NCBI GenBank assembly: GCA_048938105.1
Contig: JBHLMN010000006.1
Coordinates: 192,001 to 256,000, forward strand
Length of the DNA: 64,000 nt
Origin: Promethearchaeota archaeon
GTDB taxonomy: Archaea > Asgardarchaeota > Heimdallarchaeia > Hodarchaeales > Hodarchaeaceae
Reading direction: 5' to 3'
Both the position numbers and the translations under genes were made by a program. The notes below the pieces were generated by a model that saw nothing but the letters and a program-made list of their open reading frames with translations, did no database searches and was not told the DNA's origin. Within the stretch, counting starts at the first letter, position 1; each line of letters begins with the position of its first letter. Shown in pieces: positions 40,440-48,475 of this stretch.

Positions 40440-40576
40440 TTTATATCATTCGAATGGATTTATTTTTTTAAGCCTAGTTTGAGTGTCTTTTAATTGTCTC
40501 TACCTTACTTATTAATGTCAGTATATTTTTTTCGGAACTTCATCTTCAAAAATATTGAATATTAATTAATACTTGA

Positions 40577-40614
40577 TATTAACTAATATTCAAATCCTAA
40601 TTTATTAGTTAATA
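40577..40614. promoter_or_regulatory. 12-bp inverted repeat, candidate operator in a divergent promoter
   Basis: TATTAACTAATA-14 nt-TATTAGTTAATA, about 30 bp upstream of dps. Confidence 0.4.
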
Positions 40615-40642
40615 GACTACTAAACTAAAAGGATATGAAAAT

Positions 40643-41200
40643 ATGACAGCAGAAGTAGCTAGAAAAATGGTAGAGAAAGCTGGAATTGATGTCGATAAAT
40701 TGTTGGAGCTATTAATTAAGAATGCAGCAGCAGAACTAACGACATATTATTATTATACCATATTACGGACAAATCTTATTGGATTTGACGGAGAAGGTTT
40801 GAAAAAGATTGCTGAAGATGCAAGAATAGAAGACAGAAATCATTTTGAGGCTTTAGTTCCTAGGATCTATGAGCTCGGTGGAAAATTACCTGATGATATG
40901 AAAGAGTTCCATGATGTTTCGGCTTGTCCGCCTGCGTATTTACCGAAGGATATTACTGATGTGAAAGAAATTGTTAAAGTCTTACTAAAAGCAGAACAGT
41001 GTGCAGTTCGAGGATACACTGAAATCTGCAATATGACGGCTGGGAAGGATCATAGAACCTATGATTTAGCTTTAGCAATCCTAAATGAAGAAATTGAGCA
41101 TGAAGCATGGTTCACAGAATTTTTAGGAAAAGGGCCTTCAGGACACTTTCTCAGACCTAATGGTGTGAACAGCCCCTATGTTTCAAAGTTTCTTCATTAG
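40643..41200 (+). CDS. dps: Archaeal DPS-like (DPSL, thioferritin) protein
   Basis: [51 protein letters not shown]. Confidence 0.92.
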
Positions 41201-43268: not shown

Positions 43269-43781
43269 TTGATACTTATGGGAAAAATAGAAGAGGATTT
43301 AATGGCAGCTTTTGCTGGTGAAAGTCAAGCAAACCGAAAATATCTAGCATATGCAAAAAAGGCGGAAAAAGATGGATTTCCTCAGATAGGACGGCTTTTT
43401 CGTGCAGTTGCTCATGCTGAGACTATACATGCTCACAACCACCTACGTGTTTATGGTGGAATTAAAACAACTCTTGAAAATATTAGGGCAGCAATAGAGG
43501 GGGAACATTATGAATTCACTAAGATGTATCCTGAATTCTTGGAGGATGCCAAGGAAGAAGGGAGGAAAGCTGCGGAACGGACGTTTGATTTTGCCAATCA
43601 AGTAGAGAAAATACACCATGAATTATATTCACGTGCGCTAAAAACGGTTGAAAGTGATAATGACCTTCCAGAAAAGCCAATGTACGTGTGTGAAGTCTGT
43701 GGTTATACGATTGAAGATGGGATCCCAGACAAATGTCCCATTTGTGGTGCCTCTCACGAGAGATTTACTAAGATAGAATAA
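43269..43781 (+). CDS. rbr: Rubrerythrin
   Basis: AFAGESQANRKY, AETIHA, EKIH, and a C-terminal rubredoxin-like CEVCG...CPICG. Confidence 0.95.
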   Translation: MILMGKIEEDLMAAFAGESQANRKYLAYAKKAEKDGFPQIGRLFRAVAHAETIHAHNHLRVYGGIKTTLENIRAAIEGEHYEFTKMYPEFLEDAKEEGRKAAERTFDFANQVEKIHHELYSRALKTVESDNDLPEKPMYVCEVCGYTIEDGIPDKCPICGASHERFTKIE

Positions 43782-43852: not shown

Positions 43853-44416
43853 TTGACATTTGAAGACTTAGTTAATAGAAGAAGAGCATATAGAGCATTA
43901 GAATCTGTTGAGATAACAAAGGAATTAATCGAAAAAACTGCGTATATAGCTCAATTAGCTCCCTCATGCTTCAATAAACAACCATGGAGATATATCTTCG
44001 TTTTTGAGAAAACATTACTCACAAAATTGCAGAATGAGGGTCTTTCAACAGGAAATAAATGGGCAAAAGATGCTAGTATGATCATTGCAGTATTTTCCAG
44101 AGTTGATTTAGATTGTGTAATAGGTGACCGACAATATTATCTATTTGATACGGGAATGGCAACTGCACTTATGATTCTGTATTTAACTGATCAAGATTTA
44201 GTTGCACATCCAATAGCAGGATTTGATCCAGTAAAAGTAAAGGAAGTCTTGGAAATCCCTAATGAAATGCATCTGATAACTTTAATAATCGTTGGGAAAA
44301 AAGCAGATAAAATTCCAGACTTTTTTGAAGACTATCAAAAGAAAAGTGAAGTAAAACGCCCAGCACGAAAACCTTTAGATGAGTTTATCTACATGAATAA
44401 ATACTTCAAAAAGTAG
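43853..44416 (+). CDS. Nitroreductase family protein
   Basis: RRRAYR, APSCFNKQPW, DTGMA, HPIAGFD, RKPL. Confidence 0.9.
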   Translation: MTFEDLVNRRRAYRALESVEITKELIEKTAYIAQLAPSCFNKQPWRYIFVFEKTLLTKLQNEGLSTGNKWAKDASMIIAVFSRVDLDCVIGDRQYYLFDTGMATALMILYLTDQDLVAHPIAGFDPVKVKEVLEIPNEMHLITLIIVGKKADKIPDFFEDYQKKSEVKRPARKPLDEFIYMNKYFKK

Positions 44417-44435: not shown

Positions 44436-44576
44436 CTAGTCATTGATTCTTACAAAGTACTTTTTCGGAGCTTTACACCAAGGACAAACCCAATCGTGTG
44501 GAAGCTCTTCAAACGGAATTCCTTTTTTTTCGTCATCATATGTATATCCACACATTCTACATTCCCAAATTGCCAT
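44436..44576 (-). CDS. rub: Rubredoxin (46 aa; absent from the ORF track)
   Basis: Hand translation MAIWECRMCGYTYDDEKKGIPFEELPHDWVCPWCKAPKKYFVRIND*, with an AGGTG RBS upstream. Confidence 0.92.
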   Translation of the reverse strand: MAIWECRMCGYTYDDEKKGIPFEELPHDWVCPWCKAPKKYFVRIND

Positions 44577-44823
44577 ATTTTGCACCTTGTTAAATGTTGA
44601 TATTTACTGAAATCAAAACTTTGGGATTCAGAATAATATTTGCTTAGAAATAGGCTATTTTATCAAAGATTATTTGGATTAATATCTTTAATCAGTCCAT
44701 CTAATTTTTGATATGGTATAATTGATAACGAATTTCATATTGAAAAGATTATAATCCAATAAATTAATGTCATATCGAGAACCATGTATTTTATTCAAAG
44801 ACTCTGATATAAGTGATGAATGA

Positions 44824-45375
44824 ATGAAATTTAATACTTTATTAGATGTCTTCAAAAGAAAAAAACAACCTCCTCAAATTCACTTAGAATATATCATTAT
44901 CTGTCAAAATTCAGGCCAACCTATCTATACAAAATGTTGGGGGAATGTTTGCGGGATGTTGGGAAAAAAAGATGAATTAATGACTGCATTTCTAGCAGCA
45001 ATTTCCACAATGCCAAGAATGTTTGCCGAATCAGATAGAAAAGTCCATAGTATGAGTATTGGATCATTAGAATTGTTATTTTCATATACAGAATCAGAAA
45101 ATATTATATGCCTGGCATTTCCAATGAGGGACGTAAATAAGAACACAATGGGAATTGTAAATAATCTCTTCAAGGATATCTCTCAATTGTTAGATGAGGA
45201 TTTTTCTAAAACACCCTGGGATCGATTAAACGATCCAAAAGTCCTCTTGTTTGAAAAGGAACTCCTGAAGAAAGCTATTCATCCATGGTTCCATCTTGTA
45301 TTGGCAAATAATGGAGCTAAACATGAAGAGAATTGCCCAATATGCATGCCAATGATTTTACAATCATGTTCCTGA
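44824..45375 (+). CDS. Longin-like domain protein with Cys motifs (CWGNVC, HEENCPIC)
   Basis: Pattern YIII-xx-SGQPIY...ELMTAFLAAI...SMSIGSLELLF...IICLAF plus a helix, typical of Asgard longin domains (from recall). Confidence 0.65.
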   Translation: MKFNTLLDVFKRKKQPPQIHLEYIIICQNSGQPIYTKCWGNVCGMLGKKDELMTAFLAAISTMPRMFAESDRKVHSMSIGSLELLFSYTESENIICLAFPMRDVNKNTMGIVNNLFKDISQLLDEDFSKTPWDRLNDPKVLLFEKELLKKAIHPWFHLVLANNGAKHEENCPICMPMILQSCS

Positions 45376-45450
45376 TCTACTTACTGAATGATTGTTTTAA
45401 TGTAATCTCAACAATATTAAAAAGAATATATTAAATTACGTGAGGAATAA

Positions 45451-46548
45451 ATGAAACTCAAATCCATACTAAATATTTTTAAAAAAAAGAAACGATCTAG
45501 GGGAATTAACTTAGAGTACCTCATCATTTATCAAGATTCGGGGCAGCCAATTTATTCCAAGTGTTGGGGAAATGTTTGTGGGTTGTTAGGAAAAAAAGAC
45601 GAATTATTAACAGCTTTTTTAGCTGCTGTCTCCACGATGCCAGGGATGTTCGCTGAATCAGACACCAAAGTTCATAGTATGAGTATTGGATCCTTAAAAT
45701 TATTATTCTTTTATACAAAATCAGATAATATTATTTGTGCAGCATTTGAGGAGAGAGATGTCAATCCTGAAACAATGGAAATTGTAAATAACCTCTTCAA
45801 AAGTGTTTCCTTGTTATTAGATGAAGAATATCAAGGAACTCCCTGGGATCGATTGAACGATCCAAGAGTCCAAGCATTTGAAAAAGAACTACTTTCAAGT
45901 ATAATCTACCCTTGGTTTCATGTTGCCTCATACATTAATGGAAGTTCTCATGATGAGAATTGTCCTTTATGCATGCCTACGATACTAAGCATGGATAAAA
46001 AGCTTCCTGTCTGGGGAAGAATCAAGAATAATTATTCAACAGAGACTCAATCACTAGCAAAAGTTGAAACACAAAGCGGTTCATTGCAAATAGGTGATCT
46101 AGCTCCTGACTTTGTTGCGGAAACTGATAGAAGTGAATCAATAAGACTTTCTGATTATCAAAACAAAAAAAATGTTGTTCTCTTCTTTTACCCCAAGGCA
46201 AACACTCCAGGATGTATTATTGAGGCACAAGGATTTCGTGATGCCTATAATGAGCTGAAAAATCTAAATGCAGAAGTCATTGGAATCTCGGTTGACAACA
46301 TTTCTGATTTGCAATCCTTTAGAAACGACCAACAACTCCCATTTCCACTAATAACTGACATTGAAAAAGATATTTCAACTAAATATGGCTGTTTAAATGA
46401 CAAAGTTGGATTGGCTAAAAGAACAACTTTTCTAATCGATAAGCAAGGGAAGATTAGAAATATCTGGAAGCTTTCAGGGACGTTTGTTCAAGAACGATTG
46501 TTTCAACATGCACTTGATATTAAAAAAACTCTATTAGACTTAAATTGA
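45451..46548 (+). CDS. Longin-like domain fused to a BCP/PrxQ peroxiredoxin
   Basis: The N-terminal ~180 aa are a close paralog of the upstream gene. The C-terminal part has GDLAPDF, FFYPKANTPGC (peroxidatic Cys), GISVD, RTTFLID. Confidence 0.85.
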   Translation: MKLKSILNIFKKKKRSRGINLEYLIIYQDSGQPIYSKCWGNVCGLLGKKDELLTAFLAAVSTMPGMFAESDTKVHSMSIGSLKLLFFYTKSDNIICAAFEERDVNPETMEIVNNLFKSVSLLLDEEYQGTPWDRLNDPRVQAFEKELLSSIIYPWFHVASYINGSSHDENCPLCMPTILSMDKKLPVWGRIKNNYSTETQSLAKVETQSGSLQIGDLAPDFVAETDRSESIRLSDYQNKKNVVLFFYPKANTPGCIIEAQGFRDAYNELKNLNAEVIGISVDNISDLQSFRNDQQLPFPLITDIEKDISTKYGCLNDKVGLAKRTTFLIDKQGKIRNIWKLSGTFVQERLFQHALDIKKTLLDLN

Positions 46549-46589
46549 AAATAATTTATTTTCATAATTATAATCCAGGTGATTGAAAT

Positions 46590-47573
46590 TTGGTGGGTTT
46601 ATCAGGTGATTTTGATGTCATTGTTGTAGGAGGTGGCCCAGCAGGGCTGTCCGCTGGAATTATTTCTTCTCTTAAAGGATTAAATACGGCAGTTTTCGAG
46701 GGAGGAACGTGGGGAGGGCTTTTAAGCACCATATATCCTAAAAAGAAGATCTATAATTACCCTGGCACCCCTCGTATTCGGGCTGAACATCTTGTTTCAG
46801 AGTGGGTTCGTCAAGCTGCAGATCACGGAGTGCATCTCATCAAAGAACGAATAACAAAAATATATAAGAATCTAGAAGTTGAGACTTCTGAAGGGGCAAT
46901 CTATCAAGCAAAATCAATTATTATTGCCACAGGAATGAAACCGAATGAATTGGGGATTCCTGGCGAATCAAAACTCTCTAAGAAAGATAGGGGAGTATAT
47001 CCTTATGTTATTGAACCAGAAATCTTTAATAATCGTCGTGTATTAGTTATAGGGGGTGGAGATACCGCTATTGATGCAGTTATCGATCTAAATAAGATTG
47101 CGCAAAAAATATATCTAGCACACCGACGAACAGAGTTCAGGGCATCAGAAACAAACTTGGAACTAGTAAAAAACGAAAAAATGGCCGACATTCTAACAAA
47201 TGTAACTATAAAAGAGATTCTTGGGCAACGTAAAGTGGAAGGAGCTATCCTAGAGGACGTTAACACTAGAGAGAAAATAGAACTTAACATTGAAAAAGTC
47301 ATCCTCGCAGTAGGGTTAACACCAAACACTGAGATTTTTCAGGATTTAGGATTAGAATTCCAAGGTAAATTCCTTAAGGCCGATGAACTTCAACGTACAA
47401 ATATTGAAGGAGTATTTGCTGCAGGAGACATTGTTACTCCTTACCAGTTAGCTACGGTGGCAGCTGCTCAAGGAGCTCTAGCTGCTCATGGTGCATATCT
47501 TTATATTCGTGATCCATACTGGAAACAAGAACATATGAAAGAGAAATCAGAAATTAAACACCAGATTCTCTAA
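46590..47573 (+). CDS. TrxB-fold flavoprotein lacking CxxC; likely ferredoxin-NADP(+) reductase (YumC type)
   Basis: GGGPAG, GGLLSTIYPKKKIYNYPG, GGGDTAID, HRR, FAAGD. GVYPYV occupies the position of the thioredoxin-reductase CxxC. Confidence 0.8.
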   Translation: MVGLSGDFDVIVVGGGPAGLSAGIISSLKGLNTAVFEGGTWGGLLSTIYPKKKIYNYPGTPRIRAEHLVSEWVRQAADHGVHLIKERITKIYKNLEVETSEGAIYQAKSIIIATGMKPNELGIPGESKLSKKDRGVYPYVIEPEIFNNRRVLVIGGGDTAIDAVIDLNKIAQKIYLAHRRTEFRASETNLELVKNEKMADILTNVTIKEILGQRKVEGAILEDVNTREKIELNIEKVILAVGLTPNTEIFQDLGLEFQGKFLKADELQRTNIEGVFAAGDIVTPYQLATVAAAQGALAAHGAYLYIRDPYWKQEHMKEKSEIKHQIL

Positions 47574-47635
47574 ATTCACTCTAATCATAAGGGCTTCTCA
47601 TTTGTTTAAAAAACCCGTAAGTTGAAGTGTGAGAA

Positions 47636-48475
47636 TTAATCATTTGACAAGAAAAAATCTTTCCTTCCTTCAAAAAACCTAGCTAATCTTCCAAGAATAG
47701 CTGATTCATCTTGAGAGAAGTATCTATCTTCATTTGAAATCTCCTTAATAGCTGGGATAAAATTTTTCAAGAAAGATTCTTTATTTATTCTTTCAGTTTC
47801 CGCTAATTTCCTAGTTCTACGAGCTATTGTGAAAGCTTTGTAAAGAAGTTCCTTATTTTTCCCAATACGATGAATAATCTCTTTATCTTCCTCAGATAAT
47901 TTATTACTAGGAATAGCCTCTTTGAAACTATTTAAAACCTTATCAAAACCTCCCAAGCTTGGATATAGCTCAACAATATAGTGTAATATATCTCGAATGT
48001 TGATTACCCGAATCGGATCATCTTCAATGATTGCGTAAGAATATCCTTGAACTTCCATCATATGGAGAGCACATGCTACTGAATCAGTCTTTTTGAGAAC
48101 AACAGGTGATTTTAGCATTGCTTCTCGAATTGGCTTATCTAAATTTATTGGTGATTCATTGCATACTCTTCGAAGAAGAGATCGTTCTGTAAATATCCCT
48201 TCTATCGATCGATCTAATCCTACAACAACCACTGAGCATTTTTGATGATCAATCATCAACCCAACTACTTCTCTAACTGATTTATTTGGTGGAACTTCAA
48301 GAGCTAGTGATTCTTGTCCTCCAACTTCCCCAAGACAATCCTCTAATATTGCTTTCTCGATTCTAGAGTCCATTTTTGGCTTTCTTTTTTCGATAACAAT
48401 ATCACTATTACAATTGGAGCAATAAAGTGATCCAGGTAAATTCTCATGTCCACAAACAGCACATCTTATCATCAA
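47636..48475 (-). CDS. Zinc-ribbon + CBS-pair protein with a C-terminal helical domain
   Basis: CAVCG...CSNC at the N-terminus; GIFTERSLL and VINIRDIL CBS motifs. Confidence 0.75.
   Translation of the reverse strand: MMIRCAVCGHENLPGSLYCSNCNSDIVIEKRKPKMDSRIEKAILEDCLGEVGGQESLALEVPPNKSVREVVGLMIDHQKCSVVVVGLDRSIEGIFTERSLLRRVCNESPINLDKPIREAMLKSPVVLKKTDSVACALHMMEVQGYSYAIIEDDPIRVINIRDILHYIVELYPSLGGFDKVLNSFKEAIPSNKLSEEDKEIIHRIGKNKELLYKAFTIARRTRKLAETERINKESFLKNFIPAIKEISNEDRYFSQDESAILGRLARFFEGRKDFFLSND

Follow-up and report, generated by a model that had tools for sequence, protein, structure and literature searches.

Longin domains are signature components of eukaryotic trafficking and GTPase regulation and commonly act as dimeric platforms. 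To our knowledge their roles in Asgard archaea are almost wholly unknown. Peroxiredoxins fused to a second domain are represented by the peroxiredoxin-glutaredoxin of Haemophilus influenzae and the peroxiredoxin-nitroreductase of Thermotoga maritima. Among the reported Asgard longin and roadblock proteins the fusion partners are GTPase, roadblock or TRAPPC3 domains; peroxiredoxin fusions and metal sites are absent from that account (PMC10933270). The DNA analysed here (the window) is a stretch of 64,000 nucleotides of contig JBHLMN010000006.1 (positions 192,001 to 256,000; assembly GCA_048938105.1) from a Promethearchaeota archaeon of the Hodarchaeales. At 44824–47573 it carries a gene coding a predicted longin (g1), a gene coding a longin-peroxiredoxin fusion (g2) and a flavoprotein gene (g3). 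An earlier note on this DNA, made from the letters alone, had proposed that the three genes form a redox-sensing unit and knew of no described longin-peroxiredoxin fusion; no publication on such a fusion was found in the literature, nor was a paper on a longin with a metal site. The locus is read here, with moderate confidence, as a 1-Cys peroxiredoxin borne by a metal-stapled longin scaffold and set in a stress island centred on rubredoxin.

The three genes are co-oriented open reading frames with intergenic gaps of 75 bp (g1/g2) and 41 bp (g2/g3), in exact agreement with the layout first described. Their features are the following:

44824–45375, + strand: g1, 183 residues, stand-alone protein of predicted longin fold with C38, C43, H167, C171 and C174, plus C182.
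45451–46548, + strand: g2, 365 residues, longin domain, linker and peroxiredoxin.
45451–46005, + strand: residues 1–185 of g2, longin domain paralogous to g1 with the same Cys/His site (the next part starts at 46006).
46006–46089, + strand: residues 186–213 of g2, linker with a conserved P186-x-W188 ... Y195 helix motif.
46090–46461, + strand: residues 214–337 of g2, predicted PrxQ/BCP peroxiredoxin core with Cys255, Arg324 and Gln260.
46590–47573, + strand: g3, 327 residues, Cys-less NADPH flavoprotein of thioredoxin-reductase fold, similar to ferredoxin-NADP reductases (FNR).

The g1 protein and residues 1–179 of g2 align without gaps at 69% identity (BLASTP E 4e-96), which bears out the proposed paralogous domain of ~180 residues. 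The motifs SGQPIY, CWGNVC, TAFLAA, SMSIGSL, H-x3-CPxC and TPGCIIEAQGFRD are all found in the translations. In the maximum-likelihood tree the orthologues of g1 and the longin domains of g2 split into two sister groups within a single, strongly supported clade (support 100/96), and the duplication that gave rise to them is thus regarded as recent.

The domain common to g1 and g2 models as a longin fold. The AlphaFold2 (AF2) model of g1, built on an alignment of 29 sequences, has a mean predicted local distance difference test score (pLDDT) of 73 and a predicted template modelling score (pTM) of 0.73. Its topology is b-b-a-b-b-b-a-a (strands 23–27, 33–38, 75–79, 82–88 and 94–100; helices 46–62, 106–126 and 138–155) and it has no N-terminal helix, the sign of roadblock domains; the longin domain of g2 displays the same order of elements. 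A Foldseek search of the PDB with the g1 model found TRAPPC2/sedlin, Tca17, AP sigma subunits, VAMP7, Sec22b and zeta-COP, with TM-scores of 0.62–0.67 (normalised to target length). The independent VIA search (48,161 chains) has longin domains in all its top 30 rows and 28 chains at Z≥8, among them sedlin/TRAPPC2 (2j3w_A; Z 12.2, root-mean-square deviation 2.9 over 130 residues), 7b6d_H and 2zmv_A (Z 11.4–11.6) and the Lokiarchaeota longin dimer (8yqg_B; Z 9.9). Both searches place the domain among longins, as its sequence pattern had suggested in the earlier note. Its kinship to the Pfam family Fuz_longin_1 (PF19036) is distant, because g1 (19.7 bits) and g2 (14.5 bits) stay under the gathering cut-off of 26.1 and the family is matched at E≤0.01 (best 1.5e-6) by 17 of the 40 divergent relatives introduced below, in which the Pfam scan detected no other longin or roadblock family.

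The five residues C38, C43, H167, C171 and C174 are invariant in 29 close homologues, so that the conservation expected for CWGNVC and H-x3-CPxC is found, and also in 13 fusion orthologues. When 1.84 billion representative proteins were searched exhaustively with HMMER, 46 clusters of the longin family were obtained, 40 of which were aligned. C38, C43 and C171 are near-invariant in these divergent members, and the fourth ligand alternates between the H-x3-C-x2-C form of the window and the commoner C-x4-8-C-P form; a few members have His-rich variants of the site. Since the ligand changes position while four ligands stay, this pattern points to a metal-binding site rather than a catalytic disulfide. 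On base rates we infer that the metal is most likely zinc, which is favoured over an iron-sulfur cluster. The named members of the family belong to Hodarchaeales and Kariarchaeaceae. Across 300 genomes of the phylum a profile of the family gave strong full-length matches in the window's own genus and in several other families, one of them in a different class (f11), with weak generic-longin matches nearly everywhere. A feature search of the ESM Atlas retrieved archaeal clusters alone. In the members from other classes the motif reads C-x4-C ... C-x5-C and an IWxxIxxxY helix is conserved. The neighbourhoods of wider-family members (L009, L010, L045–L050) show no match to the query proteins of the redox island. 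From these alignments the Cys/His site is ancestral to a broad, mostly peroxiredoxin-free family, and its retention in members mostly devoid of a peroxiredoxin or of redox neighbours argues that it is not an adaptation to the tethered peroxidase.

Many family members of 210–240 residues (e.g., P0042, P0044, P0047 and P0057) end in an aromatic/basic, hydrophobic tail such as ...FFVKLYMKFFNWWDLRSFKRK, which resembles an amphipathic membrane anchor; the peroxiredoxin fills that position in g2. The gene of another member, P0035 (214 residues), overlaps by 4 bp a conserved gene coding 282 residues of no Pfam family (L010:5001–6490, L011:1545–3034). Two Arf/Ras-like GTPase genes lie on the opposite strand ~2 kb from the P0035 gene. 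This proximity was rejected as evidence: with 72 Ras-family matches per 5.85 Mb, it is expected by chance in about one case in eight.

The carboxyl terminus of g2 is classified by its sequence as a PrxQ/BCP peroxiredoxin outside the atypical 2-Cys subclass. Residues 214–337 match the Pfam family AhpC-TSA (134.6 bits against a cut-off of 26, E 2.2e-39) and their closest solved relative is Bcp1 of Sulfolobus solfataricus (3drn, 1.9e-27). The peroxidatic Cys255 is found in the motif PKANTPGC, and P248, T252, C255 and R324 are invariant in the fusion orthologues. Five residues after the peroxidatic cysteine (position Cp+5) g2 has no resolving cysteine: the residue is Gln260, the replacement that had been read from the letters. 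Glu and Arg occupy this position in the divergent fusions P0071 and P0054, respectively, so that none of the three fused peroxiredoxins has a cysteine there, whereas the standalone BCP of the same genome keeps it (TPGCTKEAC). Cys314 was considered as an alternative resolving residue and rejected; it is invariant in close fusions and absent from P0071 and P0054. The linker that joins the peroxiredoxin to the longin domain has P186, W188 and Y195 invariant in the 13 fusion orthologues, and a helix is modelled at 187–194 in a segment of low pLDDT. This motif, as PIWxxLxxxY, also follows the metal site in distant members of the longin family.

The fusion proteins (361–369 residues) form 13 clusters at 90% identity in NCBI, JGI, ENA and Logan assemblies and one is encoded in the complete 4.94-Mb genome CP070695.1. 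The fusion is therefore not an assembly artefact, a concern raised at the outset, and it recurs in the two divergent lineages of P0054 and P0071. The longin parts of the latter are 24–30% identical to g1. Their peroxiredoxin domains share 44–51% identity with the g2 domain and with each other, against 32–38% for the other peroxiredoxins of the genome, and the three share a carboxyl-terminal IWKLTG.FAQ motif. Peroxiredoxin fusions were the only longer homologues in a profile search limited to proteins of more than 350 residues, which is weak evidence for the absence of other partners. The fusion is genuine and old and, as far as this search shows, specific to peroxiredoxin as partner. P0054 and P0071 lie on very long branches of the longin tree, where their placement is unreliable; a single origin of the fusion is favoured, short of proof, by the similarity of the peroxiredoxin domains. 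P0071 alone supplies the genomic context of the divergent fusions, the contig of P0054 being too short for its neighbours to be read. Conservation of a longin gene paired with the fusion gene was considered at P0071 and rejected: the upstream gene (219 residues) is unrelated, and g3 is not nearby.

Co-folding of g1 with residues 1–190 of g2, with alignments for both chains, gave an interface score (ipSAE) of 0.53 against 0.01 for the best control, rated as weak support for an association. In the calibration of this score 58 of 80 solved complexes attain its mark, as do 2 of 110 mismatched pairs; values up to 0.60 account for just 7 of those 80 complexes and for the two mismatches. At least 81% of contacts recur between runs, and the partner pLDDT is at least 69. 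Longin dimers are well represented among structures, which may have helped the model, and the chains are 69% identical. The co-fold thus displays likeness to known dimers without separating a heterodimer from a homodimer, and of the longin heterodimer first proposed the pairing is weakly supported and the choice of partner is not. In the AF2 model of full-length g2 the peroxiredoxin (~93 pLDDT) and the longin domain (~70) flank an ill-defined segment at 160–200, with a pTM of 0.54. A fixed docking of the two domains was accordingly rejected as no pose is predicted, a result that is not evidence against their contact.

The g3 protein matches Pyr_redox_2 (Pfam, E 4.9e-42). It scores 234 bits against TIGR01292, under the equivalog cut-off of 343, and has no redox-active CxxC, so that it is not a thioredoxin reductase by this model. 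It contains no cysteine at all: at the active site of thioredoxin reductase it reads GVYPYVIEPEIF where 4zn0 reads SYCAICDGPFF, PYVI aligning to CAIC. The features of thioredoxin-reductase-type FNR, namely the fold without CxxC, the HRRxxxR motif and an aromatic carboxyl-terminal extension, are present, and GGxL..YPxKxIY is common to g3 and the CxxC-less FNR-like 2zbw, whose GGQLTALYPEKYIYDVAG resembles GGLLSTIYPKKKIYNYPG of g3. The orthologues keep GVYPYV(I/T)EP, the NADPH motif HRRxxFR (HRRTEFR in g3) and the carboxyl-terminal IRDPYWKQEH, and none has a CxxC. The first description of gene 3 as a CxxC-less, FNR-like flavoprotein of the TrxB fold is upheld. Its proposed role in re-reducing the longin site is not, because a protein without cysteines cannot reduce a protein disulfide by thiol exchange; g3 could serve the longins only if they held a one-electron centre. 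Canonical CxxC thioredoxin reductases are coded elsewhere in the genome (contigs C9 and C31). The genomic contexts of g3 orthologues are:

Subclade with g3 at least 79% identical: rubredoxin, divergent from g1-g2-g3.
Genome G261: rubredoxin, divergent from g1-g3, fusion absent.
Genomes G118, G106 and G301: g3-HSP90, divergent from rubredoxin-flavodiiron protein.
Genome G291: rubredoxin-GNAT-g3-hemerythrin/PAS-peroxiredoxin.
Genome G240: g3 beside a disulfide-reductase-like gene coding 451 residues; rubredoxin, longins and the other genes absent.

Rubredoxin is the most frequent recurring neighbour of g3, found within ~3 kb in five loci (L035, L036, L037, L039 and L040), and the slot of the longin genes in the window is that of HSP90 in sister species. 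Orthologues of g3 in sister species stand without a longin or a peroxiredoxin, and none is found beside the distant fusion P0071. The g3 gene follows rubredoxin and stress islands whether longins are present or not, which argues against a dedicated three-gene unit as it had been conceived. The HSP90 (HtpG-like) gene lies between g3 and the divergent rubredoxin-flavodiiron pair at L035:6480–8342 (− strand), and also in L037 and L039. The gene coding 451 residues (Pyr_redox_2 and Pyr_redox_dim, similar to CoA-disulfide reductase) is found between g3 and a CBS gene in G255, G138 and G240; it is missing from the window (47573–47636 compared with L004:8173–9528), and a 31-codon remnant alone is found in G261.

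The locus would thus be part of a Hodarchaeales oxidative-stress island and not a closed three-gene system. Its two longin genes would derive from the recent duplication of a longin-fold protein of the wider Asgard family, whose carboxyl-terminal tail is predicted to be pinned to the beta2-alpha1 loop by the four-ligand Cys/His metal site. The longin module of g2 would bear the 1-Cys PrxQ peroxidase on a flexible linker. The longin domains would pair, g1 with g2 or each with itself, and would serve the peroxidase as scaffold or targeting module. An outside thiol, for example of the thioredoxin or glutaredoxin system of the cell, would resolve the sulfenate of Cys255. The flavoprotein g3 would contribute to the electron supply of the island (rubredoxin, rubrerythrin, flavodiiron protein or ferredoxin) and would not be a dedicated longin reductase. 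Fold, conservation, fusion and synteny are the established elements of this scheme, for which we infer metal identity, dimerisation and electron partners; a hand-off from Cys255 to the longin is hypothetical. Several observations weigh against the scaffold scheme. The g1 model is least confident at 42–47 and 160–183, where the conserved cysteines are located. The loss of the Cp+5 cysteine in every fused peroxiredoxin, and its retention in the standalone BCP, would also fit a functional hand-off between this thiol and the longin module. Contig C50 already codes for a canonical rubredoxin reductase (398 residues, with a Rubredoxin_C domain), so that g3 is not obviously needed for rubredoxin. Adjacency of g1 and g3 is kept in G261 without the peroxiredoxin, which leaves room for a link between these two proteins.

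The longin might instead provide the missing resolving thiol, its CPxC tail or the carboxyl-terminal cysteine of g1 resolving the 1-Cys peroxiredoxin in a self-contained peroxidase that is recycled by thioredoxin. Such an arrangement would resemble the resolving cysteine of the partner subunit in typical 2-Cys peroxiredoxins, or the peroxiredoxin-glutaredoxin hybrids. The g1 protein ends eight residues past its CxxC with a cysteine adjoining the carboxyl terminus (C182), and each of the 16 g1 orthologues terminates in (S/A)-C-(S/P), optionally followed by one further residue. C171-P-x-C174 is like a CPxC redox motif and does not vary across the fusion clade, and the Cp+5 cysteine was lost in fused peroxiredoxins only. 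However, C174 is replaced by an upstream Cys or His in P0071 and in most of the wider family, which is the behaviour of a metal ligand rather than of a catalytic dithiol, and metal-bound cysteines are poor resolving thiols unless the metal leaves. This built-in resolution is considered unlikely.

A redox-sensing relay, closest to the scheme of the earlier note, is quite unlikely. In it Cys255 would oxidise the Cys/His site of the longin, the metal would be released, the g1:g2 platform would signal to GTPases or membranes and g3 would reset the system. The conserved site, peroxiredoxin as the sole fusion partner found for this longin family, the lack of the resolving cysteine in all three fusion lineages but not in the standalone BCP of the genome, the weak model support for a heterodimer and the presence, in the same genus, of a third longin beside another peroxiredoxin in a second stress island (see below) all speak for it. 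It is opposed by the greater age of the site, which predates the fusion and is kept in members without redox context, by a g3 that is free of cysteine and occurs without longins in sister species, and by the absence of a fixed pose between longin and peroxiredoxin (AF2 pTM 0.54). A coupling to small GTPases also finds no support at the level of gene neighbourhood: none of the 72 Ras-family (PF00071) matches of the genome falls in the window and the nearest is ~80 kb away. These matches occur about once per 81 kb, several of them in tandem (e.g., C6:74011–75506). Asgard GTPase genes are generally not in operons with longin genes (Tran et al. 2024, PMC10933270), and the missing GTPase gene is thus only mild evidence against a coupling. 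The specific proposal that peroxide oxidises and demetallates the longin site, and thereby switches a g1:g2 dimer in control of a small GTPase or of membrane association, is very unlikely.

We give little credence to the remaining alternative, in which a [2Fe-2S] or [4Fe-4S] cluster occupies the Cys3His or Cys4 site and the longins are one-electron partners of g3: 3Cys-1His ligation does occur in redox-active 2Fe-2S proteins, g3 resembles the ferredoxin-reducing branch of the thioredoxin-reductase fold in its features, lies 41 bp downstream of g2 in the same orientation and stays next to g1 in G261 without the peroxiredoxin, but the motif spacing fits no cluster signature that could be named, one-electron input is of no obvious use to a thiol peroxidase, the clade B orthologues of g3 and most members of the longin family occur separately, and the adjacent rubredoxin gene offers a ready partner.

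The three genes are set in an island that comprises DoxX-like and M50-like membrane proteins, rubrerythrin, nitroreductase, rubredoxin, a CBS protein and a two-subunit 2-oxoacid:ferredoxin oxidoreductase, and whose gene order is maintained in relatives. The features directly upstream of g1 are:

43269–43781, + strand: rubrerythrin with a carboxyl-terminal rubredoxin-like domain (Rubrerythrin 3.1e-24, RUBY_RBDX 3.4e-11), syntenic in relatives.
43853–44416, + strand: nitroreductase-family flavoprotein (Nitroreductase 3.8e-15), syntenic in relatives.
44436–44585, − strand: rubredoxin, 49 residues, CxxC...CxxC, divergent from g1 and directly upstream of it, between the nitroreductase gene and g1.
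44723–44742, + strand: conserved 20-bp block TGATAACGAATTTCATATTG in the divergent rubredoxin/g1 intergenic region, ~85 bp upstream of g1.

The rubredoxin gene had not been mentioned in the earlier note; relatives have an annotated match to the Pfam family Rubredoxin in the corresponding place. The 20-bp block is the same, letter for letter, in three species (the window, G255 and G138), is retained in part in G261 and may act as promoter or operator of the divergent rubredoxin and g1 genes. A repeated operator was considered and rejected: the block has no second close copy in the genome, and no regulon can thus be defined. A regulator common with the DpsL genes was likewise rejected, the operator TATTARTTAATA being found at 40560–40721 and at a few scattered sites, none of them upstream of g1 or rubredoxin. 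Note that the spacer of the DpsL genes carries a cluster of TATTA(A/G)TTAATA, with three exact copies at 40560–40614 and a copy with one mismatch at 40710; the whole window has 14 matches with at most one mismatch (2.9 expected) and none is near the longin genes.

A second oxidative-stress island of the same genome lies on contig C50 (C50:4000–16000, L023). It codes for the rubredoxin reductase, an FTR-beta-like protein whose gene overlaps a glutaredoxin-like gene, rubredoxin, a flavodiiron protein, a helix-turn-helix regulator, a standalone peroxiredoxin (166 residues), an uncharacterised protein of 157 residues and the third longin, Lg156. The latter has 156 residues, a C-x5-C motif (CYGGDYC) and similarity to Fuz_longin_1 (E 3.8e-4). 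The proximity of longin and peroxiredoxin in this island is kept, in rearranged form, in three other genomes of the genus and is not found in the more distant Heimdallarchaeia examined.

The longin family delineated here is widespread in Asgard archaea and has a conserved metal-type site, and the sole enzyme found fused to it is a peroxiredoxin that lacks its own resolving cysteine. This architecture gives a concrete handle on one archaeal longin, and cultured Hodarchaeales now exist. If the link between longin and peroxiredoxin is functional, it would tie oxygen stress, which is central to models of eukaryogenesis, to a regulatory fold of eukaryotic type; if not, g2 would be an unusual scaffolded antioxidant enzyme. 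The demetallation switch, were it true, would place a forerunner of the peroxiredoxin-based redox relays on trafficking-type machinery in prokaryotes, among the closest archaeal relatives of eukaryotes.

The comparison with known systems delimits what is particular to this locus. The predicted bb-a-bbb-a-a fold of g1 and g2 is that of the TRAPP longins (sedlin/TRAPPC2, TRAPPC2L/Tca17 and synbindin/TRAPPC4) and of the first longin of Fuz/Mon1/HPS1 (PF19036). In contrast to these, g1 and g2 stay under the Pfam cut-off and one copy is fused to an enzyme; we know of no eukaryotic longin with their conserved Cys/His metal-type site and carboxyl-terminal tail. The Asgard longin and roadblock proteins, exemplified by the Loki Roadblock-Longin dimer (8yqg; chain 8yqg_B at Z 9.9), belong to the same phylum and display the same fold. 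g3 shares its fold, the loss of CxxC, GGxL..YPxKxIY, HRRxxxR and the aromatic carboxyl-terminal extension with thioredoxin-reductase-type FNR (Bacillus subtilis YumC 3lzw, Thermus thermophilus 2zbw, Chlorobium tepidum 3ab1), although its best sequence match is the true thioredoxin reductase 4zn0, and its activity as an FNR is putative. The peroxidase of g2 agrees with PrxQ/BCP proteins (S. solfataricus Bcp1 3drn, Escherichia coli BCP) in the AhpC-TSA domain, the PxxxTxxC motif, the catalytic arginine and the domain size, and differs from them in lacking the Cp+5 resolving cysteine and in having a longin extension of 200 residues at its amino terminus and an extra carboxyl-terminal helix. Like the hybrid peroxiredoxins of H. 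influenzae and T. maritima, g2 joins a peroxiredoxin to a second domain, and a nitroreductase gene is found here two genes upstream. Unlike in those hybrids, where the partner is a thioredoxin-fold or flavin domain, the partner domain of g2 is a longin.

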